From NCBI GenBank assembly GCA_946404295.1, contig CAMJDE010000001.1, forward strand, positions 1 through 26,081: a DNA stretch of 26,081 nucleotides, given 5' to 3'. Numbering within the stretch: the first letter of the stretch is position 1; each line of letters begins with the position of its first letter. Shown here in pieces: positions 10,432 to 25,844 of this stretch. The DNA comes from an uncultured Clostridia bacterium (GTDB taxonomy: Bacteria > Bacillota > Clostridia > Oscillospirales > CAG-272). The notes below the pieces were generated by a model that did not search any database, had not been told where the DNA came from, and was given only the letters and a program-made list of their open reading frames with translations. A program made the translations under genes and the position numbers.

Positions 10432-10471
10432 GGGACAAAACGCACCCGGGGGTGGCGGGCGCAAAGCGCCC

Positions 10472-10687
10472 GCGTGAAGTGCTTGCTTCGCAAGCGTGAA
10501 GTGCCGCGCGGGGCGCGGCGTGAAGTGTTTGCTTCGCAAACGTGAAGTGCGGCGGGGGACCCCCAACGCTCTCAAGTTCGCGTCGGGGAACCCCTACTTC
10601 GGGAACCCCCAACGCTCTCAAGTTTGCGTCGGGGAACCCCTACTTCGGCACTCCGCGTGAAATGTTTGCTTCGCAAACGTGACGTGT
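10472..10687. repeat. REP-like palindromic repeat cluster (3 x 33-bp unit A, 2 x 44-bp unit B)
   Basis: Unit A GCGTGAAGTG(T/C)TTGCTTCGCAA(A/G)CGTGAAGTGC at 10472-10504, 10518-10550 and 10655-10687. Unit B ACCCCCAACGCTCTCAAGTT(C/T)GCGTCGGGGAACCCCTACTTCGG at 10559-10602 and 10605-10648. Confidence 0.9.
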
Positions 10688-10860
10688 TTCCCTACGGTCG
10701 GCGTGCAAACAGACCAGATGAAAAAAGAATAAATACGGTTGCGGCTATAGAACCGCAAAACGGCGAGAGAGCGCCGTTTTGCTCTTCAATAATGACCCAT
10801 TATTGAAGTTCTTTGCCGCGCTTTCTTACAAGAAAGCGGGCGGTTTTCTCCCCGTTCCTC

Positions 10861-13730: not shown

Positions 13731-14547
13731 CGGTCCCCTCGCTTTCCCCAGGCTCTTCGCACTTCGGCGCGCGGTGGAAAGAGAACTTCGATTCCTCGCC
13801 GTGTGTGATGCGCTTGATGTTCGGGATGTGTTTCAGGATGATGACGGCGGGGATAAAGAAACCGAACAGAACGATGTAGACCGGGGGATACGCCCCGCCG
13901 AAAAGCCCCTGAAAGAAGGGAACGAGAAAGACGGGGTAGAGCGCCGCCCCGACCGTCGAGCCGAGCGAGATGTAGCGGGTGAACGCCACCACGATCACGA
14001 AAATCCCGAAGAGGATCAGGGCGAGCCAACGGTTTAAGAAGAGGGCGACGATGAACGAGGAGAGCACGCCCTTTCCGCCCTTGAAGCGGTAGTAGATCGG
14101 GAAAACGTGCCCGAGGATGCAGAACGCGCCGGCAAGATAAGTGCCGACGACGATCGGGTTGTCCCCGACCGAGAGAATAAAGAGCGAGGGGTCGGACGGC
14201 TCAAACGCGAAGCCGCCGATCGAATAGAACCCGCAGCAGGCGGCGCCGAGCAGAACCGAGAGCACGCTTTTCAGGACGTCGCCGACGATCGTCGGGATCG
14301 CGCCCTTTACGCCGAACACGCGGAACATATTGGTCGCCCCGCCGTTCCCGCTCCCGTGCCGGCGGATATCGTCGCGGAAGAGGACCCGCGAGACGATGAA
14401 GGCGGTGTTCACGCTGCCGAGCAGGTAGGGGATCACGACGCAGCAGAGCAGAACGGCAAGCGGCTTGATCAAAAGAAAAAAGAGATCGTCGCCGACCGTC
14501 CCCGACGCGAGGATCCGCGCAAGGAATCCTTCCTGCAAAAAGTTCAT
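13717..14547 (-). CDS. plsY: glycerol-3-phosphate 1-O-acyltransferase PlsY
   Basis: YLLGSV, DIRRHGSGNGGATNMFR, DVLK, GHVFP...FKGGKGV and HIPNIKRI. ATG 14547 follows GGAGG. Confidence 0.93.
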   Translation of the reverse strand: MNFLQEGFLARILASGTVGDDLFFLLIKPLAVLLCCVVIPYLLGSVNTAFIVSRVLFRDDIRRHGSGNGGATNMFRVFGVKGAIPTIVGDVLKSVLSVLLGAACCGFYSIGGFAFEPSDPSLFILSVGDNPIVVGTYLAGAFCILGHVFPIYYRFKGGKGVLSSFIVALFLNRWLALILFGIFVIVVAFTRYISLGSTVGAALYPVFLVPFFQGLFGGAYPPVYIVLFGFFIPAVIILKHIPNIKRITHGEESKFSFHRAPKCEEPGESEGTDDKR

Positions 14548-14594
14548 AGTACCCCCCTCCGGCACTTCCGCCGGAACAACGTATTTCTATGCAA

Positions 14595-14623
14595 ATTATA
14601 TACCACTTTACGCGTAATGTCAA
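14595..14623 (-). promoter_or_regulatory. sigma-A promoter of plsY operon
   Basis: Minus strand TTGACA-N17-TATAAT. Confidence 0.85.
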
Positions 14624-14663
14624 GAGAGAAGAGAACGGAATCGGGTATGCAAAAGAAAATGAA

Positions 14664-14690
14664 AGCCGGGAAGTCGAAGACTTCCCGGCT
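14664..14690 (-). terminator. intrinsic terminator of nfn-PAP2-SGNH transcript
   Basis: AGCCGGGAAGTC-GAA-GACTTCCCGGCT 12-bp stem, followed by a U-rich run on the minus strand. Confidence 0.75.
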
Positions 14691-14694
14691 CAGA

Positions 14695-14905
14695 CCGTCG
14701 ACAAACTTGCATGACCGGCAGGTAAGAGTGCAAGAATCGGTTTCCCAAAGCAAACGCAGAAAAGAGGGACAGCGTTCAAAAGAAACGGGCGGGGCGGGCA
14801 AAAATGCCCGCCCCGCCATGCCTTTCGCCGTTTTCGCTCTCTGTCGTACGCCCGTACGCCGACGAGTACGAAAACGACGAATCCTGCCGCGTTTCTCTCG
14901 GTCTG
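14695..14905 (-). repeat. dispersed structured intergenic element, copy 1
   Basis: Aligns along its length with 22117-22321 (inverted) and in part with 24904-25038. Internal 13-bp hairpin GGCGGGGCGGGCA/TGCCCGCCCCGCC. Confidence 0.9.
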
Positions 14906-14949
14906 TCTTGAATTGCGGACTTTGTCTGCAATTCAAGCCGAAAACGGGA

Positions 14950-15621
14950 TCAGAGCGTCCCGAGAAACGCGATCACCCGGTCGGCGAGCCGACGGGCTCC
15001 GGCGTCGTTCGGATGCAGTCCGTCGGGGCAGAACGCCGCGCGCTGCTCTTCGATCATAGGTTGGATCCCCGCCGTCGCGAACAGGTCGAGGACGGGGAGA
15101 GAAAACTCCGCCGCAACCTCCTTGATCGCCCTCACGTAGTCGCGAAGAGGATGGCAGGGAAGCCCGATCTCGTTTGTCGTCGTGTTCTCGCTTCTTCTGT
15201 GGAGCGGGGTCATCAGGACGATCCGCTTGGTCGGGTAGCGGCGAATCAGGCGCAGGCAGAGCGAGCGGAGCGCGCCGTAGAAGGTGTATTCGCTCTCGGG
15301 TCCGTCCGACGGAGTACCGAGTTTTCCGTTCCCGTGTCCGAAATCGTTGGTGCCGCCGAACACGACGATCACGTCGGCGTCGGGGTCGATGCCGTCCACA
15401 CGATCGAGGAAGCATTGGTCGTACTTGGGTTTGGCGCCGGGATACTCGGAGCGGGCGATCCGGGTGCCGCCGATTCCGTAGTTCAGAACGCGGATGTCGC
15501 TCCATTCGCGCGCAATCACGCCGACGAAGCCGTTTTCGGGCTTGGACGCTCCGCAGCCCTCGGTGATGCTGTCGCCGAGGAACGCGACGGTCGCGATCGG
15601 TTTGTTCAGGTTGAGTTCCAT
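14950..15621 (-). CDS. SGNH/GDSL hydrolase family protein
   Basis: Block I FLGDSIT, block II GIGG, block III FGGTND and block V DGLHP. Confidence 0.93.
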   Translation of the reverse strand: MELNLNKPIATVAFLGDSITEGCGASKPENGFVGVIAREWSDIRVLNYGIGGTRIARSEYPGAKPKYDQCFLDRVDGIDPDADVIVVFGGTNDFGHGNGKLGTPSDGPESEYTFYGALRSLCLRLIRRYPTKRIVLMTPLHRRSENTTTNEIGLPCHPLRDYVRAIKEVAAEFSLPVLDLFATAGIQPMIEEQRAAFCPDGLHPNDAGARRLADRVIAFLGTL

Positions 15622-15635
15622 ATCTGTATCCTTTC

Positions 15636-16601
15636 TTATTCCGCGTCTTGCGGGTCGATTTCGGGTTGAGGCGGATCCTTCTTTTTGCCGATCCGCGAGA
15701 GAAGCGGGAAGGCGAGCGGCCAGAGCAGCCCAGCCGCGATCACGACGATAAAGTAGCGGATCGCGTGGGAGAAGAGCGCGCCGCCGAACAGCAGCGAAAA
15801 CAGCGGCTTCAGTCCCTCTTTCAGTCCGAGCGCGAGGGCAAGCCCGCCGACCAGTTTGACGATCTGCGCCGGGAGCGGAGCCTCGGTCTTATAGTTGATA
15901 TACCGCGGTTCGATCAGCGAGAACAGCAGCATCGCCGAAACCGAGCCGACAAGCGTCCAACCGTTCTTCTGCGCCTCGGCGAGGTTCACGGGGTCGGTGT
16001 CGGCGGGGAAGGGGAAGAGCAGGGTGAAGAGCAGAAAAGCGACCGAGGCGAACAGACAAAAGGACACCCACACGACGAGCGCCCTTTGTCCCCGGTCGCG
16101 CGAAAAGACGGGGTAAATCGCGAACACGAGCAGAAGCGCGCAGCCGGCGCCGCAGAGCACGTCGGCGGGCGTATGCACGCCGAGAAAGAGCCGCGAGAAG
16201 GGGACGAGCACAGAGAGAAGCGGGAACACGATCCGCGCCGCCTTGCTCTTGCGGTGCCAAAGCGCGAGCGAACCGTAGACGCCGACGGCGTTCTGCGCGT
16301 GCCCCGACGGGAAGGAATAGCCCGTCGCCTCCGCCCGCGCGCTCTCCCAGATCGTGAAATCCGGGTCGCGCACCCACGGACGGGGAACGCGGAAGAGGAT
16401 CTTTAAGGTCTGATTGACGACCGTGCCGAGAAATCCGACCGAGAGGACGTAAAAGCCCTCGCGCTTGTCGACGCACCAAAGGAGAAAGAGCGAAACCACG
16501 AGGAACGCCGCTTCGCCTCCGAAATTGGTTAAGAAGGAAAAGATCGTGGCGAGCCAAGGGGCGGCATGCCGGATCTTTTCAAGTACGTAGAGGAAAGACA
16601 C
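15636..16601 (-). CDS. PAP2 family membrane phosphatase
   Basis: KILFRVPRP, FPSGH and SRLFLGVH..DV motifs; multiple TMs; GTG start after GGAGG. Confidence 0.9.
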   Translation of the reverse strand: MSFLYVLEKIRHAAPWLATIFSFLTNFGGEAAFLVVSLFLLWCVDKREGFYVLSVGFLGTVVNQTLKILFRVPRPWVRDPDFTIWESARAEATGYSFPSGHAQNAVGVYGSLALWHRKSKAARIVFPLLSVLVPFSRLFLGVHTPADVLCGAGCALLLVFAIYPVFSRDRGQRALVVWVSFCLFASVAFLLFTLLFPFPADTDPVNLAEAQKNGWTLVGSVSAMLLFSLIEPRYINYKTEAPLPAQIVKLVGGLALALGLKEGLKPLFSLLFGGALFSHAIRYFIVVIAAGLLWPLAFPLLSRIGKKKDPPQPEIDPQDAE

Positions 16602-16634
16602 AGGTTCGCCTCCTCTCGGAAAGTCAAGAAAGAA

Positions 16635-18056
16635 TCAGTCGTTTTTGCCTGCCAGCGCTTCGTCGATCGCTTTTGCGGCGGTCTTGCCCGCGCCCATCGC
16701 GAGAATGACGGTCGCGGCGCCGGTCACGGCGTCGCCCCCGGCGTAGACGCCCGGTTTCGAGGTCAGCCCGGTCGCCTCCTCGACGACGATCCCGCCCCGG
16801 CGGTTCACGTCGAGCCCGGCGGTCGTCGACTTGATCAGCGGGTTGGGGCTGGTGCCGATCGACATCACCACGGCGTCGACGTCAAGCACGAACTCCGAGC
16901 CGGGGACCTCGACGGGCGAGCGTCTGCCCGACGCGTCGGGTTCGCCGAGTTCCATCTTGATACATTCGATCCCGGTGACGAACCCGTTTTTCGGGTCGCG
17001 CCGGTCGTTTTCGTTCTGATAACCGAGGATGCGGACGGGATTGGTGAGGAGCCGGAAATCGATCCCCTCCTCCATCGCGTGTTCGACCTCTTCGCGCCGG
17101 GCGGGCAGTTCTTCCAGCCCGCGGCGGTAGACGACGTAGACCTTCTCCGCGCCCAGACGGAGCGCGGTGCGCGCGGCGTCCATCGCCACGTTCCCGCCGC
17201 CGACGACGGCGACCCGCTTCGCTCGCAGGATCGGGGTCGCGCTGCCCTCGCGGTAGGCGCCCATCAGGTTGCTTCGCGTCAGATATTCGTTCGCCGAGTA
17301 GACGCCTTTCAGCGCCTCGCCCGGGATCCCCATAAAGCGGGGAAGTCCCGCGCCCGAACCGATAAAGACGGCTTCATAGCCCATATCAAAGAGTCGGTCG
17401 ACCGTCAGCGTCTTGCCGATGATGACGTTGGTCTCGAAGTCGACGCCGAGCGCGCGAAGCGTGTCGATCTCGCGGCGCACGATGGTTTTCGGAAGCCGGA
17501 ATTCGGGAATCCCGTACATCAGGACCCCGCCCGCGACGTGCAGCGCCTCGTAGACCGTGACGGCGTAGCCGCGCTTTGCGAGGTCGCCCGCGCAGGAAAG
17601 TCCCGAGGGGCCGGAACCGACGACGGCGACCTTGTGTCCGTTCGGCGCGGGACGCGCGGGTTTTGTCGAGACGTTTTCGTTATGCCAATCGGCGACGAAC
17701 CGTTCGAGCCGACCGATTCCGACGGGCTCGCCCTTGATCCCGCGGACGCACTTGGATTCGCATTGCGTTTCCTGCGGGCAGACGCGCCCGCAGACGGCGG
17801 GAAGCGACGACGAGGCGGTGATGACCTCGTACGCCCCCTCGAAATCGCCCTCCCGCACCTTTTCGATAAAGGCGGGGATGCGGATGTTCACGGGACAGCC
17901 CGAGACGCAGGGCATATTCTTGCAGTTGAGGCAGCGGGCGGCTTCGTCGAGGGCGGTCGCCTCGTCGTAGCCGAGGGCGACCTCCCCGAAATTACGGGCG
18001 CGGACCGCGGGGTCCTGCACCGGCATAGGGTTCTTTTTCAAAGACATATTCGGCAT
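16635..18056 (-). CDS. nfnB: NfnB/SudA-type large subunit of electron-bifurcating transhydrogenase (commonly annotated NADPH-dependent glutamate synthase, gltA)
   Basis: Fe-S motifs CLNC...CVSGCP and CGRVCPQETQCESKC; GSGPSG, GGGNVAMDAAR and GGDAVTGAATV. Adjacent to an NfnA-type gene. Confidence 0.85.
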   Translation of the reverse strand: MPNMSLKKNPMPVQDPAVRARNFGEVALGYDEATALDEAARCLNCKNMPCVSGCPVNIRIPAFIEKVREGDFEGAYEVITASSSLPAVCGRVCPQETQCESKCVRGIKGEPVGIGRLERFVADWHNENVSTKPARPAPNGHKVAVVGSGPSGLSCAGDLAKRGYAVTVYEALHVAGGVLMYGIPEFRLPKTIVRREIDTLRALGVDFETNVIIGKTLTVDRLFDMGYEAVFIGSGAGLPRFMGIPGEALKGVYSANEYLTRSNLMGAYREGSATPILRAKRVAVVGGGNVAMDAARTALRLGAEKVYVVYRRGLEELPARREEVEHAMEEGIDFRLLTNPVRILGYQNENDRRDPKNGFVTGIECIKMELGEPDASGRRSPVEVPGSEFVLDVDAVVMSIGTSPNPLIKSTTAGLDVNRRGGIVVEEATGLTSKPGVYAGGDAVTGAATVILAMGAGKTAAKAIDEALAGKND

Positions 18057-18074
18057 TTTTTCAATCCGCCCCCC

Positions 18075-18917
18075 TTACTTGTTCTCGCTTTTGAAGAGGT
18101 TGCAGTCCTCTTCGCGCTTTGCCGCCTCGAAATCGCGATACATCGCCGAGCGGCTCATCGCTTCGTCGAAATCGATCTTGTAGCCGTCGAAATCGGGTCC
18201 GTCGACGCAGGCGAACTTGGTCTCGCCCCCGACGGTCAGGCGGCAGCCGCCGCACATCCCGGTCCCGTCGATCATGATCGGGTTCATCGAGACGACGGTC
18301 GGAGTGCCGAAGGGACGCGCCGTGGCGACGACGAACTTCATCATGATCAGGGGACCGATCGTGATGATCTCGTCGTAGTTCTCGCCCGCCGAGAGCCACT
18401 CGCCGAGCGGGAGGGTGACGACGCCCTGCCGCCCCGCGCTCCCGTCGTCGGTCATGACGGCGAGCCGGTCGGAGACGGCGGCGAATTCGTTTTCGAGGAT
18501 CAGGAGATCCTTCGAGCGGAAGCCGATCACGGTATGCACCTCGCAGCCGAGGCGGTGGAGTTCCTCGGCGATCGGAAGCGCGATGGCGCAGCCGACGCCG
18601 CCCCCGACGACGCAGACCTTTTTCAGCCCCTCGACCTCGGTCGGTTTGCCGAGAGGACCCGCGAAATCGGGAATGGTATCGCCGACGTTCTTGCGGTTCA
18701 GGGCGGCGGTCGTCGCGCCGACGATCTGGAAGATGATGCGGACGGTCCCTCTCTCGCGGTCGTATCCCGCGACGGTCAGGGGGATGCGCTCGCCGTCCTC
18801 GTCCACGCGCAGGATGACGAACTGCCCGGGGCGGGCGGCGGCGGCGACGAGCGGCGCCTCGATCTCCATCAGCGTAACGGTGGGATTCAGACTCCGTTTT
18901 TCTTTGATACGATACAT
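18075..18917 (-). CDS. nfnA: NfnA/SudB-type small subunit (dihydroorotate dehydrogenase electron-transfer-like FAD/NAD protein)
   Basis: PGQFVILR, ERIPLT, GPLG, GGGVG and MNPIMIDGTGMCGGCR...ACVDGPDF ([2Fe-2S] with Asp ligand). Confidence 0.85.
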   Translation of the reverse strand: MYRIKEKRSLNPTVTLMEIEAPLVAAAARPGQFVILRVDEDGERIPLTVAGYDRERGTVRIIFQIVGATTAALNRKNVGDTIPDFAGPLGKPTEVEGLKKVCVVGGGVGCAIALPIAEELHRLGCEVHTVIGFRSKDLLILENEFAAVSDRLAVMTDDGSAGRQGVVTLPLGEWLSAGENYDEIITIGPLIMMKFVVATARPFGTPTVVSMNPIMIDGTGMCGGCRLTVGGETKFACVDGPDFDGYKIDFDEAMSRSAMYRDFEAAKREEDCNLFKSENK

Positions 18918-18966
18918 GGGTTTCCTTTCTGCCGATCGGCTCGAACGAGCGAAAATATTAAAAATA

Positions 18967-18996
18967 ATTATACCAAACCGCGCCCCGTCTTGTCAA
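18967..18996 (-). promoter_or_regulatory. sigma-A promoter of nfnAB
   Basis: Minus strand TTGACA-N18-TATAAT with extended -10 TG. Confidence 0.75.
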
Positions 18997-19086
18997 GAGC
19001 GGAGGCGCGTTTTTCGGCGGTTTTTCGGGGCGGGAAGGGGGAAAAACGAAAAAAGCGGTCGGATGTAATCAGTTTCGTTTCACCCG

Positions 19087-19115
19087 TTGACATCCGCGCG
19101 GGAATGTGATAAAAT
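19087..19115 (+). promoter_or_regulatory. sigma-A promoter of CYTH operon
   Basis: TTGACA-N17-TAAAAT with extended -10 TG. Confidence 0.75.
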
Positions 19116-19147
19116 ATGAAAAAGAGATATCGTGGGGGAGAAGGTCT

Positions 19148-19672
19148 ATGCGGACGCCGGGGATCCCGTTGGAAATCGAGCGGAAATATCTGATCCGGAT
19201 GCCCGATCCCGGCTTTCTTTCGTCGCTTCCCGGCTGCGTCGTGTCCCGAATCGAGCAGACCTATCTGCCTGATCCCGCCCCCGGCGTGACCGAGCGCATC
19301 CGGCTTCGCCGCTTTCCCGATCGGGTCGAGTACACCCACACGGTGAAACTCCGGCTCTCGGACACGACGGCGCGGGAGGAGGAAGAAACGCTCTCCGAGG
19401 ACGCCTACCGCGCGCTCCTTTCCCGCCGCGATCCCTCCCTTCAAACCCTCTCGAAAACGCGCTACGCCTTTCCGATCGGGGGGCAGGTCTACGAGGTCGA
19501 CGTCTATCCGTTCTGGGAGAAAACGGCGGTGCTCGAGACCGAACTTTCCGACGCCGCGCTCCGCGCGCCGATCCCGCCCTTCCTCTCGGTGATCCGCGAG
19601 CTGACGGGGGAGAGGGCGTATTCCAACCGCAATCTTGCCCGGCGGATCCCGCCGGAACCCGACCTCAAGTAA
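19148..19672 (+). CDS. CYTH domain (triphosphate tunnel metalloenzyme) protein
   Basis: EIERKYL (ExExK), RIRLR, KTRY, YEVDVYPFW and LETEL. Start set at ATG 19148, downstream of the promoter. Confidence 0.88.
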   Translation: MRTPGIPLEIERKYLIRMPDPGFLSSLPGCVVSRIEQTYLPDPAPGVTERIRLRRFPDRVEYTHTVKLRLSDTTAREEEETLSEDAYRALLSRRDPSLQTLSKTRYAFPIGGQVYEVDVYPFWEKTAVLETELSDAALRAPIPPFLSVIRELTGERAYSNRNLARRIPPEPDLK

Positions 19673-19708
19673 CGGTCGAATCAATATTTACAGAAAGGAG
19701 ATCCGGAC

Positions 19709-21118
19709 GTGTTTCCAGGTGAAACCCCGGTGTCCGGGACGCGGTCCCGCGGATATAAGTTCAACGGAATATTCGGCTCGGTCACGGTGACGGCTCTGCT
19801 CTTTCTTTTGGCGCTCGCGTTCGCCTGGTTCAAGTGGTACGTCGCCGGAGCCGTCGCCTTTGCCCTGATCGCGGCGGCGGAACTCGTGTTCTGCTCCGAT
19901 CTGTCGGTCCCGGCGTTCCCGCTCCTGCTCCTCTCGGTCATCGTTCTCCCCTGCTACGACAGTTTCGATATCTTCGTCCGGTTCGCCTGGGTGATCCCGG
20001 TCTTTCTCGTCGCGTTCTTCTACAATCTGATCGTCTTCCGGGAAAAGATGAAGATCGGGCGTACCTTCTTCGGTCTCGTCGCCGTCATGGTCGCTCTGAT
20101 GGTCGGCGGGACGGGATTTATCGCGCGGGAGGATCTGCTCTCCCCCATGTCGCTTTTCTACGTTCTTTCGCTCGGGCTGGGGATGGTCCTCTTCTATCTG
20201 TTTATCAAATCGCGCTTCTCGCGCTTCAATATCTACGGGATCTTCGGCAGGATCGCTCCGGCGATGTACCTCGTCGGGATCCTTTGCTGCGTCATTATCC
20301 TGCTCTACACGGTCCGGGACAACCCTATCGACCCCGTGTTCCCCGACCGCATTTTCTACAATCTGCATCACGCAGAGTTCCGCGCGTCGAATAACCTTTC
20401 GACCGTACTGATGCTGGCGATGCCCTTCCCGGTCTGGTACGCCCTGAAACAGCATCCCGTGCATATTCTGACCTGCTTTATTTTCTATTTTGCCATCATC
20501 ACCGCCGGCTCGCGCGCCGGAGTTATGCTCGGGGCGATCGAACTCTTCCTCTGCTTCCTCTCCTGGCTGCGCTACTGCGGTCCGATCTCGAAGAAGATCG
20601 GGACGTTCTTCGGCCCCATCCTGATCCTGCTCGGGCTGATCACGACGCACTGGTTCTTGACGAGTTATCCCGATTTCGGCGTGGTCAACGACGGCGAGTT
20701 CCGGGTCAGCGCGATCGAGATCGCCATCCGCGAGTTCCGCGAGCATCCGATCTTCGGGATCGGGCTCCGCAATCACGCCCTCGACGAGATCTATCAGCCG
20801 AAGAAGGGCGCGCTCTGCTGGTTCCATATGTATTTCCCGCAGATCTTCGCCTCGATGGGGCTCTTCGGCTTCTTCTCCTATCTCTTGCAGTTGTTCCTGC
20901 GCGGGACGCTGATCTTCAAAAGAAAACGCGGACCCGTCCGCTCGACTCTCGGGCTCTCGTATATCGGGCTGTTTCTGATGTCGCAGCTCAACCCCGGCGA
21001 GTTCTGCCCGTTTCCTTACGCCCTGATGGCGGTCGCGATCTTCGTGATGCTCGAACAACTTGAAGAGACCGAACGCCTCGCGCGCCTGCTCGCCCCCGAA
21101 TGGGGAGAGAACGCTTGA
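19709..21118 (+). CDS. O-antigen ligase (Wzy_C)-like polytopic membrane protein
   Basis: About 12 TMs; TAGSRAG, FREHPIFGIG and H...QIFASMGLFG patterns. Confidence 0.7.
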   Translation: MFPGETPVSGTRSRGYKFNGIFGSVTVTALLFLLALAFAWFKWYVAGAVAFALIAAAELVFCSDLSVPAFPLLLLSVIVLPCYDSFDIFVRFAWVIPVFLVAFFYNLIVFREKMKIGRTFFGLVAVMVALMVGGTGFIAREDLLSPMSLFYVLSLGLGMVLFYLFIKSRFSRFNIYGIFGRIAPAMYLVGILCCVIILLYTVRDNPIDPVFPDRIFYNLHHAEFRASNNLSTVLMLAMPFPVWYALKQHPVHILTCFIFYFAIITAGSRAGVMLGAIELFLCFLSWLRYCGPISKKIGTFFGPILILLGLITTHWFLTSYPDFGVVNDGEFRVSAIEIAIREFREHPIFGIGLRNHALDEIYQPKKGALCWFHMYFPQIFASMGLFGFFSYLLQLFLRGTLIFKRKRGPVRSTLGLSYIGLFLMSQLNPGEFCPFPYALMAVAIFVMLEQLEETERLARLLAPEWGENA

Positions 21119-21148
21119 TTTGACGATTACTTCAAAGGAGATACAACC

Positions 21149-22111
21149 ATGACCGAACTCGAACAAAAAATCTATGACCTCGGCGTGATCCCGGTGATCA
21201 AGATCGGGAACCCCGACGACGCGATCCCGCTTGCGAAGGCGCTGATCGACGGCGGACTTCCCGCCGCGGAGATCACTTTCCGCACCTCCTGCGCCGCCGA
21301 GGCGATCAAGAAGATCACAAAGGCGTACCCCGAGATGCTGGTGCTTGCCGGCACCGTCCTCAATCCCGCGCAGGTCGACGCCGCCGTCGAGGCGGGCGCG
21401 AAGATGATCGTCAGCCCGGGTCTCAACCCCAAGACCGTCGCCTACTGCAAGTCGAAGAACATTCCGATCATTCCCGGCACCGCCAACCCCTCGGATATCG
21501 AGCAGGCGATCGAACTCGGGCTCGACACCGTCAAGTTCTTCCCGGCGGAGGCGGTCGGCGGGCTCAAAATGCTGAAAGCCATGTCCGCCCCCTACGGCGC
21601 GATGCGCTTTATGCCGACCGGCGGCATCAACGCCGACAATCTGCTCTCCTATCTCCAGTTCGACAAGATCATCTGCTGCGGCGGGAGCTTTATGGTGAAG
21701 GACGACCTGATCCGCGAGGGGAAGTGGGACGAGATCACCGCCCTGACCCGCGGCGCCGTCCGCGCGATGCTCGGCTTTGAGTTCGCGCACGTCGGCATCA
21801 ACTCCGAGAACAAGGACGAGGCGCTCCGGGCGGCGAAACTGCTCGAAACCATGTTCGGGCTCCCGATCCGCGAGACGAGCAAGAGTTATTTCACCGGCGC
21901 GCCGTTTGAGGTGATGATGGCGAAGGGACCCGGCAAGAACGGGCATATCGGCATCAAGACCAACTTCGTCGACCGCGCGATGGCGTACTTCAAACGGAAC
22001 GGCTACGCGATCGACGAGACCTCGATCACCTACGCCGACAACGGCAAGCCGAAGTTCTTCTATCTGAAGGACGAGATCCTCGGCTTTGCGTTCCATATCG
22101 TGCAGAAATAA
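21149..22111 (+). CDS. eda: KDPG/KHG aldolase with ~110-aa C-terminal extension
   Basis: GVIPVI, AEITFRT (catalytic E/R), GAGTV-like LAGTV, IVSPG, VKFFPA (Schiff-base K) and PTGGI. Confidence 0.92.
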   Translation: MTELEQKIYDLGVIPVIKIGNPDDAIPLAKALIDGGLPAAEITFRTSCAAEAIKKITKAYPEMLVLAGTVLNPAQVDAAVEAGAKMIVSPGLNPKTVAYCKSKNIPIIPGTANPSDIEQAIELGLDTVKFFPAEAVGGLKMLKAMSAPYGAMRFMPTGGINADNLLSYLQFDKIICCGGSFMVKDDLIREGKWDEITALTRGAVRAMLGFEFAHVGINSENKDEALRAAKLLETMFGLPIRETSKSYFTGAPFEVMMAKGPGKNGHIGIKTNFVDRAMAYFKRNGYAIDETSITYADNGKPKFFYLKDEILGFAFHIVQK

Positions 22112-22116
22112 GAAAG

Positions 22117-22321
22117 CAGACCGAGAGAAACGCGGCAGGATTCGTCGTTTTCGGACTCGTCGGCGTACAGGCGTACGACAGAGGGCGAAAGCGGCGAAAG
22201 GCAAGGCGGGACGGGCAAAATTGCCCGTCCCGCCCGTATTTTTGTACGCCGTCTTTTTCTTTTCGCGTTTGCTCGTCGATTCTTGCGCTTTTGTATGCCG
22301 GTCGTGCAGGTTTGTCGACGG
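22117..22321 (+). repeat. dispersed structured intergenic element, copy 2
   Basis: Starts CAGACCGAGAGAAACGCGGCAGG 5 nt after the eda stop; reverse complement of copy 1 as written on the + strand. Confidence 0.9.
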
Positions 22322-22325
22322 AGTG

Positions 22326-22360
22326 AGAAGCGCCAACCCGTGCGGGTCGGCGCTTCTTTT
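22326..22360. terminator. terminator between convergent eda and deoR-like gene
   Basis: AGAAGCGCC-AACCCG-TG-CGGGTC-GGCGCTTCT-TTT. Confidence 0.8.
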
Positions 22361-22372
22361 GTTTGGTTTCTT

Positions 22373-23173
22373 TCAGTCGTTCGCTCCGGGCAGCCGGGCG
22401 ATCGAAAGTTCGGTTCCCGCCTCTTTGATCGCGCGGACGATCGCCTCGGGGATCGGGATCGACGCGTCGGTCACGAGACGGTCGACGCTGCTGAATTCGG
22501 AATAAAGGAAGAAACTGTTCTTGCCGAACTTGTCGCTCTCGGCAAGGACGATGCGGGTCTCGGAGTGCGAGAAGAGACGCGAGGTGAACTCCGCCTCAAG
22601 GTTGTTCCAGAGGAACACGCCCTTCTCCGAAACGGCGGTCGCGCCCGAAAACGCTTTGTTGAAATAGAGCCGGTCGAGCATCGGCGTACAGTCGCCCTGG
22701 ATCACGCATCCGTTCCGCGCGTTGAGCGTCCCGCCGAGCATAATGATCGTGCCGGTGAAGTCGCCGCGTTTGATCTTGCGATGCAGAACCATCGCGATCT
22801 CGGGGGAGCAGGTCGTGATCACCAGATCTTTTTTCCCGAAGATCGCCTCGGCGAACGCCTCGGTCGTCGAGCCCTCGTCGATCACGATCGCGTCGCCGTC
22901 CGAGAGCAGACTTGCCGCAAGCGCGCCGATCGCCCGCTTCTCGTTCGGAAAGCAGAGTTTGCGTTCCTCGAGATCGAATTCGTGCCGTACGGGCGGGAGC
23001 AGGACGACGCCGCCGTGGACGCGGCGGATCGGTTCCTTCTGCGAGAGAAGCGAGAGATCGCGGCGGACCGTTTCGGTCGTCACGTCGAAGGTTTGCGCAA
23101 GATCGGCGATCGTCGCCCGTCCGTCGCGGCGGACGATCTCGAGCATCGCGTTTTGTCTTTCCTTTGCCAGCAT
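22373..23173 (-). CDS. DeoR/GlpR family transcriptional regulator
   Basis: ERQNAML...FDVTTETVRRDL...RRVHGG HTH; EKRAIG; DEGSTT; LAESDKFG. Confidence 0.93.
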   Translation of the reverse strand: MLAKERQNAMLEIVRRDGRATIADLAQTFDVTTETVRRDLSLLSQKEPIRRVHGGVVLLPPVRHEFDLEERKLCFPNEKRAIGALAASLLSDGDAIVIDEGSTTEAFAEAIFGKKDLVITTCSPEIAMVLHRKIKRGDFTGTIIMLGGTLNARNGCVIQGDCTPMLDRLYFNKAFSGATAVSEKGVFLWNNLEAEFTSRLFSHSETRIVLAESDKFGKNSFFLYSEFSSVDRLVTDASIPIPEAIVRAIKEAGTELSIARLPGAND

Positions 23174-23202
23174 TGGCTTTCTCCTGTCTTTTTATTGTTT
23201 TC

Positions 23203-23231
23203 ATTATAGCAATTTTATGTTGATTTGTCAA
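23203..23231 (-). promoter_or_regulatory. sigma-A promoter of DeoR gene
   Basis: Minus strand TTGACA-N17-TATAAT with extended -10 TG. Confidence 0.85.
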
Positions 23232-23468
23232 TATCGCTTTTGGTTTTTCGGACTGTTTCCGAGAGGATCGAAAAAAAAGCCAACCGGAACCCCAAAACCC
23301 GAAAAGAGCCGCGACGAGGCGGCGAAACGGCGCCCTCGGACGGGAAAGCCACAAGAAACCAAATCGCGGGGGGCGATTCTCTTTCCGCCCGACCGTTTTC
23401 CGCCCCGCACGTCGCGGGGGCGGTTTGCAAACGTCTTTCAAAAAAATCGAAAAAGGTCTTCAAACCTG

Positions 23469-23497
23469 TTGCAAAACGTGCGCGGAAATGGTATAAT
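23469..23497 (+). promoter_or_regulatory. sigma-A promoter of MFS gene
   Basis: TTGCAA-N17-TATAAT with extended -10 TG. Confidence 0.8.
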
Positions 23498-23555
23498 GAT
23501 AATCTAATATTTTCGGGACGTTAGGATAAACCGATTAGAATGTGAGGAAACGTGC

Positions 23556-24854
23556 GTGAACGGCACGCAAACGACCGGAAACGACTCGAAGCCGAAGATG
23601 GCGCGCACCGACTTGCGGATGACGGTCCTCTGCTCGGTGATTTATCTTGTTGAATATTTCGGACGCTACGATCTCGCCGCCGCGAAGATCGAGATGCTCG
23701 GCGCTTTCGGCGCGGACGCGAAGGCAATGCTGGGGCTGGCGCTTACCCTGATGGCGATCTCCTACGGAGTGGGACAGATCGTGATGGGGGTCGTCGGCGA
23801 CCGCGTGCCGCCGCGCTTCGTCGTCTTCGCCGGGCTTCTCGGCGCGGGGGCGTGCAACCTTGTCGTCGGGTTCGCGACGTCTTTGCCGCTCGTCTGCGTC
23901 GCGTGGTTTCTGAACGGCATCTGCAAAGCGATGATATGGCCGTCGCTCGTCCGGCAGATGACCTGCGATATGACCGAAAACGGGTTCCAGACCGGGATCC
24001 TCTGGGTCTCGATCGCGAGCAACTTCGGGGTCGTGCTGGTCTATCTCGCCATCGTCCCGGTCAGCATCCTGCTCTTCTCCTGGCGGCTCGCTTTCTGGTT
24101 CTCCGGCGCGGCGGAAATCGTCGCGGGCGCTTTTTGGGTCCTCTCGGTGCGGACGATCCCCTCGGTGGGGCTTCTGACCCGGGCGCTCCGCAGCGACGAA
24201 AAGTCCGATCCCGCGGACGGGATCGAAGAACCGACCGCAAAGAAAAAGAAAAATCGGGTCCTGCCGATCCTCTTTGCGGCGGGGATCCCCGTCCTCTATT
24301 TCGTCGTGATCTGTCACGGGCTGCTCCGCGACGGCGTGACGAGTTGGATGCCCGAACTGCTGCAGGATACGTACAGGCTCGACAGCGTCGCCGCGATCAT
24401 GAGTTCGGCGATCCTCCCGGTCTTCTCGACCGTCTGCGTCGTGATCGCCGGAATGGTCTTTATGAAACTGAAAAACGAATTGACCTCGGCGGCGATCTTC
24501 TTCGGGATCGTGGTCGTGTCGCTCGGCTGCCTGACTTTCACGATCGGGCACTCCGCCATTCTGACGATCGTTCTGCTTGCCCTTGCGACCAGCGGGATCC
24601 AGGGGGTCAACCACATTTTGACGACCCGCGTGCCGCACCGCTTCGCCTACGCCGGGATCGTCTCGACCGTCGCGGGACTGCTCAACTCGGCGACCTACGT
24701 CGGCGCCGCGATCTCGGGCTACGGGATCGCGCTCTACAGCGAGGCGAACGGCTGGCACGGAACGGTGATCGCCTGGCTGATCGTCGCCGCCGTCGGAACC
24801 GTTGCGCTCGTCCTCTGCTTCGCGCGCTGGAAACGCTTTATCAAGGAACACTGA
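23556..24854 (+). CDS. MFS transporter (GlpT/UhpT-like organophosphate or sugar-acid subfamily likely)
   Basis: 12 TMs; YFGRYDL; MFS motif A-like GVVGDRVPPR; WFLNG; GLLRDGVTSWMP; GLLNSATYVG. GTG start. Confidence 0.88.
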   Translation: MNGTQTTGNDSKPKMARTDLRMTVLCSVIYLVEYFGRYDLAAAKIEMLGAFGADAKAMLGLALTLMAISYGVGQIVMGVVGDRVPPRFVVFAGLLGAGACNLVVGFATSLPLVCVAWFLNGICKAMIWPSLVRQMTCDMTENGFQTGILWVSIASNFGVVLVYLAIVPVSILLFSWRLAFWFSGAAEIVAGAFWVLSVRTIPSVGLLTRALRSDEKSDPADGIEEPTAKKKKNRVLPILFAAGIPVLYFVVICHGLLRDGVTSWMPELLQDTYRLDSVAAIMSSAILPVFSTVCVVIAGMVFMKLKNELTSAAIFFGIVVVSLGCLTFTIGHSAILTIVLLALATSGIQGVNHILTTRVPHRFAYAGIVSTVAGLLNSATYVGAAISGYGIALYSEANGWHGTVIAWLIVAAVGTVALVLCFARWKRFIKEH

Positions 24855-24861
24855 AAAAATC

Positions 24862-24884
24862 AAGCGCCCCCGGCGGGGGCGCTT
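24862..24884. terminator. terminator hairpin after MFS
   Basis: AAGCGCCCCC-GGC-GGGGGCGCTT. Confidence 0.7.
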
Positions 24885-24903
24885 CAGATCGACGACATAC
24901 TCG

Positions 24904-25038
24904 CAGTTCAAAAAGAAATGGGCGGGACGGGCATGATTGCCCGTCCCGCCTTACCTTTCGCCGCTTTCGCCCTCTGTCGTACGCACGTACGCCGACGAGT
25001 ACGAAAACGACGAATCCGGCGGCGTTTCTCTCGGTCTG
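24904..25038 (-). repeat. dispersed structured intergenic element, copy 3 (partial)
   Basis: GGCGGGACGGGCA..TGCCCGTCCCGCC...CTCTGTCGTACG...GTTTCTCTCGGTCTG; matches about 14770-14905. Confidence 0.9.
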
Positions 25039-25052
25039 TTTCGTTTGCGGGA

Positions 25053-25778
25053 TTATTCCGCGGCGGGGACGTCGGTCTCTTCCTTCTCGTCGTCGGTTCC
25101 GACCGGGACGAGGTCGGAGAAGAAGGAGAAGAGATAGAGGAGCGCGACCGAGAGCAGGGCGCCGCCGACGATATCGGTCAGCCAATGCACCCCCGAAACG
25201 AAGCGCGCGACGGCGGTGAAGACCGCGAGGGCGTAGAAGGGGAGCGAGAAGAGAACGCGGTTGACGCCGGGGGCGAAGCGGCGATGGAGCATCCGCGCGG
25301 CGGAGACGAAGACGACGATCGAGAGGACGGTGTGCGTCGAGGGAAAACTCGCCTCGGGCGTCGTGCCGTCCAGCAGGATGGGGCGGTAGTTCACGACCAC
25401 GATCTCAAAGAAAACGTAGAACAGGATCACGGCAAGGTACAGCCCGCCGAGGACGAGAAAGTCGATCCCGGTTTTGCGAAGATCGAAGCGAGAAAGGAAG
25501 AACCGCACGACCGCCCACACGGCGAACGCCGCCGCGGCGAGGATCGCGAAATAGCCGATATACTGGGTCAGGTCGTAGAATCGCAGATGCACGCCCACGG
25601 CGTCGCGGGCGGCGAAATTGAGCGACGAGAGCCCGATCTCCTTGCCCGCGTTCTCGTCGACGGCGACGTCGACGGTTTTGAGTAGCACGATCAGGAGAAG
25701 GAACGCGAGAAAAAACGCCCCTCCGACGATCGGTTTCCAATACTTTTTGAAGAACGATTGTTCGTTTTTTTCAGTCAT
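25053..25778 (-). CDS. PAP2 family membrane phosphatase
   Basis: VNYRP, SFPSTH and RFVSGVHWLTDIVGG; multiple TMs. ATG 25778 follows GGAGG. Confidence 0.85.
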   Translation of the reverse strand: MTEKNEQSFFKKYWKPIVGGAFFLAFLLLIVLLKTVDVAVDENAGKEIGLSSLNFAARDAVGVHLRFYDLTQYIGYFAILAAAAFAVWAVVRFFLSRFDLRKTGIDFLVLGGLYLAVILFYVFFEIVVVNYRPILLDGTTPEASFPSTHTVLSIVVFVSAARMLHRRFAPGVNRVLFSLPFYALAVFTAVARFVSGVHWLTDIVGGALLSVALLYLFSFFSDLVPVGTDDEKEETDVPAAE

Positions 25779-25815
25779 CGTTTTTTCCTCCGCCGACGGT
25801 TCTGCCGGCACCCAT

Positions 25816-25844
25816 ATTATACTCCCGAACGCGAAAAAAGTCAA
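25816..25844 (-). promoter_or_regulatory. sigma-A promoter of PAP2 gene
   Basis: Minus strand TTGACT-N17-TATAAT. Confidence 0.8.

Follow-up and report, generated by a model that had tools for sequence, protein, structure and literature searches.

The window analysed here, a stretch of 26,081 nucleotides from an uncultured Clostridia bacterium (contig CAMJDE010000001.1), holds three copies of a small non-coding element, each lying between a stop codon and a terminator hairpin. This element is probably a MITE (miniature inverted-repeat transposable element), which carries its own terminator and is moved in trans by a transposase of the IS1182 type. The family was previously uncatalogued; the kind of element is already familiar. 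A non-autonomous mobile element of a possibly undescribed family had been proposed in the initial annotation, and the empty sites and multiple copies described below bear this out, as does the Rfam search, which gave no match in the window at the gathering score (best sub-threshold score of 21.6 bits against the 45 required).

The homology of the three stretches, referred to here as copies A, B and C, was recovered by a repeat finder as pairwise repeat arms of 127-130 nt with 90-91% identity, and by BLAST within the genome (E values of 2e-58 and 2e-45). As first described, the copies begin with CAGACCGAGAGAAACG at 44, 5 and 14 nt past the stop codons of the SGNH, Eda and PAP2 genes, respectively. 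The native gene terminators come immediately after them, as a separate hairpin identified in the terminator scan for copies A and C, and from the sequence and orthology for copy B. The same scan (positions 14400-25300) ranked three hairpins internal to the elements as its three best terminator-like sites, all of them on the sense strand of the element. The features are listed below, where P1 is the first hairpin of the element and its scores are from the covariance model R1.

14691-14905, minus strand: main element of copy A, 215 bp, running from CAGACCG (5′) to CGGTCTG (3′) (repeat finder, BLAST and alignment).
14907-14937, minus strand: 5′ hairpin module of copy A, 31 nt, with no counterpart at the empty site of contig L150.
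14816-14888, minus strand: P1 hairpin of copy A, the conserved core, 83.2 bits.
14788-14817, minus strand: internal terminator-like hairpin of copy A, a 13-bp stem and T-run, the top-ranked terminator-like site.
14663-14691, minus strand: native SGNH-gene terminator, located 1 nt past the 3′ end of copy A, with an orthologous hairpin at the empty site of L150.
22117-22325, plus strand: copy B, 209 bp, its 3′ end degenerated to CGGAGTG.
22134-22206, plus strand: P1 hairpin of copy B, 83.7 bits, fold z = -6.4.
22205-22234, plus strand: internal terminator-like hairpin of copy B (terminator scan).
22326-22357, plus strand: native terminator of eda, abutting the 3′ end of copy B (from the sequence; the orthologous hairpin in L150 directly follows eda).
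24885-25038, minus strand: copy C, 154 bp, an internal-deletion derivative with both ends kept.
24949-25021, minus strand: P1 hairpin of copy C, 79.3 bits.
24921-24950, minus strand: internal terminator-like hairpin of copy C (terminator scan).
24862-24884, minus strand: native terminator between the PAP2 and MFS genes, 2 nt past the 3′ end of copy C, with orthologous hairpins at the empty sites.
14950-15621, minus strand: SGNH hydrolase gene (Pfam).
21149-22111, plus strand: KDPG aldolase (Eda) gene (Pfam).
25053-25844, minus strand: PAP2 phosphatase gene (Pfam).

Terminal inverted repeats had at first been reported absent; alignment of the full copies of the genome showed that they exist. 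They read CAGACCG/CGGTCTG, perfect over 7 nt and matching at about 13/16 positions when extended, the imperfect repeat consisting of CAGACCGAGAGAAAC (5′ end) and the reverse complement of the 3′ end CAGACCGTCGACAAAC. Clearer terminal inverted repeats were found in relatives (CAGACTGTC...GACAGTCTG and GGGGCT...AGCCCC). Copy C, which had been taken as partial, has instead lost about 62 bp internally, with its degenerate 3′ end (24885-24900) kept directly beside the terminator, as identified in the alignment. The copies are small and non-coding (154-215 bp, and as long as 290 bp in relatives), with indels of any length and no conserved open reading frame (ORF) common to them.

The 5′ half of the element folds into two hairpins (-69.7 kcal/mol, z = -6.4). 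The first, P1, is long and imperfect (about 65 nt); the CGTAC-N4-GTACG stem forms its tip, and the tandem GCGAAA lies in its 3′ arm and pairs with TTCGTCGTTTTCG, so that two motifs which had been listed separately are real and belong to one hairpin. The second has a 13-bp G+C stem and a T-run, and the compensatory change of G-C to A-T noted in this stem was seen again in our alignment. In addition, the 5′ hairpin of copy A has the core GCAGAC-AAA-GTCCGC, which corresponds to two end-repeat tips placed head to head, while its outer arms are copy-specific.

We gathered related metagenome contigs by an Eda search and compared them with the window at the three insertion sites:

L147: same species, 97% nucleotide identity over 10.4 kb; site A occupied; the contig ends before sites B and C.
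L150: about 84% nucleotide identity; sites A, B and C all empty, with deoR absent too at B.
L148: Eda 93% identical at the amino acid level; A not covered; B with a different P1 element, antisense; C empty.
L158: Eda 92% identical at the amino acid level; A not covered; B with a different P1 element, antisense; C empty.
L159: Eda 89% identical at the amino acid level; A not covered; B and C empty.

All three window sites are thus empty in one relative, a check suggested with the initial annotation. The layout of an empty site is a stop codon, a short A-rich spacer and a terminator hairpin recognisably the same as the one past the window element; after eda in L150, for instance, it reads AGAAGCGCCGACCC-gcaa-CGGGTCGGCGC. 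Since the native hairpin is orthologous at the empty sites, the elements at A, B and C were inserted 0-2 nt 5′ of the terminator stem. The 5′ hairpin of copy A, missing at the empty site of L150, is therefore part of the insert. The species representatives of the genus were too distant to serve as a source of empty sites, with 75% nucleotide identity at best and alignments ending at the eda stop codon.

The same gene ends have been struck repeatedly, as different P1 elements in both orientations were found at the ends of eda and of an AMP-binding gene. In L148 and L158 the gap between eda and the MFS gene holds another P1 element in the opposite orientation, and in a species of the genus (G081) an antisense P1 fragment comes right after eda. 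Past the stop codon of the AMP-binding gene, P1 elements in both orientations were detected in three species.

The genome of the window (G000) is a 1.9-Mb metagenome-assembled genome (MAG) in 284 contigs with 81% completeness. BLAST identified 11 copies of the 215-bp form in it, and R1 matched about 41 sites, of which 30 are in a second subfamily. This subfamily has about 30 copies of 250-280 bp with the ends GGTAAC...GTTACC and a central bidirectional terminator, often arranged in head-to-tail pairs (e.g. C4:2261-2820, C159:538-1030 and C89:2021-2260). The expectation of many copies per genome, drawn from three copies in the window, is thus confirmed for this genome; the 215-bp form itself is not species-wide, being found only in G000 and one same-species contig, and BLAST in 40 relatives gave the P1 region alone. 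It is the P1 core that is genus-wide. Its model matched in 135 of the 151 genomes of the genus, with at least 32 matches in the richest genomes and more than 1400 in total. Elsewhere in the order it matched 19 of 150 genomes, patchily across 10 of 30 families. The hosts are uncultured Clostridia, Eubacteriales and Ruminococcaceae MAGs from sheep colon and rumen.

Signs of recent activity were found in two relatives, G118 and G263, where the copies are near-identical and the assemblies break inside the element. The ten full copies in G263 (285-289 bp) have sharp limits. When the left flank of each copy was compared with its right flank, the longest common string was 6-34 nt, and 12-34 nt in 8 of the 10, against a mean of 5.6 and a maximum of 11 in the cross pairs that served as a control. 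What is duplicated is a complete bidirectional terminator of 30-36 bp (A3, stem-loop, T3). At one site (L204, G263:C59) the right-hand terminator copy is the exact reverse complement of the left one (34/34), and at the other sites the duplication is direct. Two old copies in G000 (C178 and C8) show a similar pattern of flanking terminators, which is suggestive; an exact-string search for target duplications at the old G000 copies scored tandem arrays alone.

The link to the IS1182 family comes from sister subfamilies. In G085 (contig C87) we identified a 1857-bp insertion sequence (IS) with the ends GGGGCTGTCTCA and TGAGACAGCCCC, located between an A-run and a T-run 40 nt past a stop codon. 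It encodes, at L211:940-2481 on the minus strand, a 513-amino-acid transposase, which scored 376 bits with the IS1182-family model NF033551 (cut-off 270). P1 elements in G085 and G017 are preceded by a hairpin to which the left 22-24 nt of this IS correspond, and in G118 the correspondence covers 14 nt; the hairpin consists of both IS ends placed head to head. The P1 elements of these three genomes terminate in GACAGCCCC, so that the sister subfamilies share with the IS 12-24 nt of its left end plus the terminal GACAGCCCC. Homologous ISs, including internally deleted forms, were detected in 22 of 200 genus genomes. The four full ISs with readable ends all have GGGGCT...AGCCCC, and three of them lie between an A-run and a T-run. 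The subfamily of the window can be tied to this IS-ended lineage because, in contigs near the window's species, one P1 element has the terminal repeat GGGGCTGT and, as the next block inward, CAGACCG. For two staphylococcal members of the family, IS1272 and TnSha1, the insertion point is the foot of a terminator hairpin, and no ordinary duplication is made (PMC4923244, PMC5678879).

Several results weigh against mobilisation by an IS1182-type enzyme. The ends of the window's own subfamily resemble the IS ends weakly, and the link runs through intermediate subfamilies. At copies A, B and C no duplication of the target can be seen, as had been stated at the outset; members of the IS1182 family have direct repeats of 0-60 bp in ISfinder. 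Searches of G000 with PF05598, PF13751 and the G085 protein gave no IS1182-family transposase in this 81% complete assembly, on which it bears that ISs often fail to assemble. Neither was an IS1182-family transposase found in G263, the genome with the terminator duplications, and no IS with CAGACYGTC ends was found in any genome searched. Finally, nine IS copies were examined and P1 occurred in none of them, so that simple deletion from a G085-type IS does not explain the element.

Among about 90 P1 loci, the recurrent neighbouring ORFs were AMP-binding and ABC genes only, with no transposase. Two other ISs, a DUF772 IS on G118:C77 and an IS3 on G263:C43, have unrelated ends. In G056, two P1 elements lie just outside an IS1182-family IS; beyond the right end of that IS (L223, G056:C18), a 29-nt direct repeat TTCTGATTATGCCGAAATTATCCGGTCAG at 2026-2054 and 2303-2331 brackets the two elements. 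G070 has two copies of one internally deleted IS1182-family IS (C104:34657-35142 and C64:55262-55729), in which transposase residues 1-67 are joined to 418-513. This deleted IS is a non-autonomous intermediate that has itself transposed.

We built covariance models of P1 (A1 and R1), a check also suggested with the initial annotation, and measured covariation on 74 matches aligned to the model, 70 of them distinct. Paired cells made up 91%, compared with 34-48% when the partners were slid as controls, and 17 of 23 pairs were changed on both sides, the alignment being fitted to the model, which biases these pair counts towards structure. Doubly changed cells numbered 171 against 49 expected, and the observed values were reached by 0 of 500 shuffles. 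Given the slid controls and the many pair types, a chance origin of the pairing is unlikely, and P1 is under structural selection. As G.U-type pairs exceed A.C-type pairs (86 vs 34, one pair being U.G in 34 of 70 sequences), the fold, which may act as DNA or as RNA, belongs to one strand. Also conserved are a purine-rich (GA-rich) internal loop (G...AGAG) and the flanks GCAGAAAU and AUAGAAAA, and P1 as a whole is better conserved across subfamilies than the element ends. The internal loop was compared by eye with the K-turn and the sarcin-ricin motif, and neither consensus fits. Two other identities were dropped, that of an integron attC site (housekeeping neighbours in both orientations and no fit to R′/R″ boxes) and that of a type I toxin-antitoxin system (the same neighbours and no conserved small ORF).

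These features could be read as those of a structured RNA selected by the host, in which P1 and the terminator hairpin form a functional 3′ untranslated region (UTR) or small-RNA unit, protein-binding or stabilising, and mobility is its means of spread. The covariation with the conserved GA-rich loop, the confinement of the fold to one strand, the retention of P1 while the ends vary, and the second hairpin, which always follows P1 and is strongly terminator-like in the window's subfamily, all agree with such a unit. Against it stand the intact terminators at the empty sites of close relatives, the patchy distribution with its bursts of near-identical copies, and the lack of any promoter-like site inside the window copies in the scanned region.

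The orientation of P1 bears most directly on this alternative. The three window copies do share the orientation of their upstream genes, as was pointed out in the initial annotation, which had offered a selected 3′-UTR RNA as one explanation. However, with genes called from ORF length and third-position G+C, convergent genes flank 7 of the 11 copies of the 215-bp subfamily, a setting compatible with both orientations; being in sense with the upstream gene is automatic there and thus weakly informative. In about 20 of 27 copies of the second subfamily, the stop of an opposite-strand gene lies about 160 nt past P1 and coincides exactly with the 3′ end of the element (GTCGTC|TTA). P1 in this larger G000 subfamily is therefore antisense to the gene whose stop codon adjoins it, and of the 24 copies that could be classified, about 10 have both neighbours on the opposite strand. 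The opposite-oriented P1 elements at the 3′ end of eda in other species and strains point the same way. Placement is always between the stop codon and the terminator, and the sense of P1 is set by the subfamily. Because it varies in this way, a general role as a co-transcribed 3′-UTR RNA is disfavoured, and we regard the host-selected RNA as improbable; what stands of it is that the core hairpin is under structural selection.

A single-strand element of the IS200/IS605-type PATE or REP/RAYT type, inserted by a Y1 HUH transposase that recognises hairpins, had been the mobile mechanism proposed at first and is now largely refuted, so that we give it very little credence. The imperfect hairpins, the covariation and strand asymmetry, the head-to-tail tandem copies and the window copies devoid of target duplication are all what it would lead one to expect. 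It is contradicted by the terminal inverted repeats, by the 30-36-bp target duplications in relatives, by the lack of a conserved 4-5-nt word 5′ of the element, by ends in sister subfamilies that match a DDE insertion sequence, and by the scarcity of its enzymes, with Y1 transposase (PF01797) in one and TnpB (PF07282) in none of five element-rich genomes.

Retro-element-like insertion through target-primed reverse transcription, or a Cas1/casposase-like one, would suit the A-rich targets with long variable duplications, the 5′-truncated copies keeping the 3′ end and downstream hairpin (L200 and L201 in G263; G000:C8:5281-5432) and the duplicated palindrome of about 30 bp (30-36 bp), which recalls Cas1/casposase integration, yet it is highly unlikely given that reverse transcriptase, the one enzyme of this reading that was searched for, occurred in only one of the five element-rich genomes, and given inverted ends in common with a DDE insertion sequence, and hairpin targeting already known for the IS1182 family.

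We therefore return to the MITE moved in trans by an IS1182-type transposase. The non-coding element would be mobilised by a DDE transposase of that family, or by a similarly behaving enzyme, of a type that recognises hairpin-forming DNA. Its place of insertion is the short A-rich spacer that separates the stop codon from the intrinsic terminator's stem, 0-2 nt away from the stem foot, and some insertions have the whole terminator duplicated on both sides. It brings its end repeats, in some cases a 5′ hairpin composed of two end-repeat tips, the 65-nt P1 and a strong terminator-like hairpin of its own. As the element brings this hairpin, at which termination is predicted from the sequence, the upstream transcript of each of the three window copies would end inside the element, with a 3′ UTR of about 125 nt that includes P1 and with the native terminator as a back-up. 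Most likely, the three window genes have in this way been given an element-borne terminator and a structured 3′ UTR.

As for P1, a fold kept for so long with compensatory changes points to a need for it in the master copies, and our best guess is that it would be a single-strand fold which they require to spread. A bolder possibility, which we put forward only tentatively and think rather unlikely, casts P1 as a single-strand motif (of RNA or DNA) with a function, its GA-rich loop binding a specific partner, and has the transposase cut both feet of the extruded terminator hairpin and so leave a 30-36 bp terminator on each side. If this held, terminators would be multiplied by a natural system that also installs a conserved structured motif at gene ends, hundreds of them throughout the genus.

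The MITE reading accounts for the repeat with which gene ends are filled in a large genus of uncultured ruminant-gut Clostridia, and ties it to a little-studied behaviour of the IS1182 family, the targeting of terminator hairpins. For annotation, ordinary genes would gain terminators and structured 3′ UTRs of about 125 nt from such elements, at which short-read assemblies break. For mobile DNA, they raise the questions of how the enzyme reads a hairpin target and why a non-coding passenger keeps a 65-nt fold for so long.

Some other features of the region were recorded. Right after copy A and its terminator there is a perfect TTGACA-17-TATAAT promoter for plsY (14595-14623, minus strand), and perfect promoter sites of the same kind were noted on the minus strand at 18967-18996 and, upstream of the deoR gene, at 23203-23231. 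A DeoR-family regulator gene (22373-23173) adjoins copy B between eda and the MFS gene and was absent in all five related metagenome contigs that span the gap (L148, L149, L150, L158 and L159); it is a lineage-specific gain or loss. Past the SGNH gene, a PAP2-family gene (15636-16601) has no counterpart in L150, where about 60 bp take the place of about 1 kb here. An unrelated direct-repeat cluster at 10470-10705 has three 53-nt units with GTGAAGTG...CGCAAGCGTGAAGTG and, inside it, two 46-nt tandem units (10555-10646); words like ‘cacttcacg’ of this cluster also occur near a P1-like site on G000:C7.

Among known systems, IS200/IS605-derived PATEs and REP/BIME repeats are, like the element, hairpin-rich, extragenic at gene ends and sometimes arranged in tandem arrays; they have no terminal inverted repeats, make no target duplications and depend on a Y1 enzyme, none of which fits the family described here. 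Correia elements in Neisseria and the bcr1 repeat of the Bacillus cereus group are comparable small repeats at gene ends, and bcr1 has a conserved RNA structure with compensatory changes. The pneumococcal BOX, RUP and SPRITE repeats are likewise small, non-coding, multi-copy and intergenic with stable hairpins; SPRITE carries terminator-like hairpins, and these repeats cluster and insert side by side, as the element does (PMC3049150; review PMC10969869). However, there is no sequence relationship with BOX, RUP, SPRITE, Correia or bcr1. The family also differs from known MITEs and small repeats in its target, which is the foot of an intrinsic terminator and not TA or TTTAT, and in a core hairpin that is conserved in more than 130 species despite variable ends.

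A close likeness is seen to IS1272 and TnSha1 of staphylococci, whose insertions fall at the base of terminator hairpins or inside them, show little primary-sequence preference and recur independently at one terminator in both orientations, with an absent or atypical target duplication and with reported variants that have extra left-end copies (PMC4923244, PMC5678879). In contrast to these ISs, the element is 154-290 bp long, has no transposase gene and carries P1, absent from the IS copies examined, and the terminator that is partly deleted by them is duplicated whole in G263.

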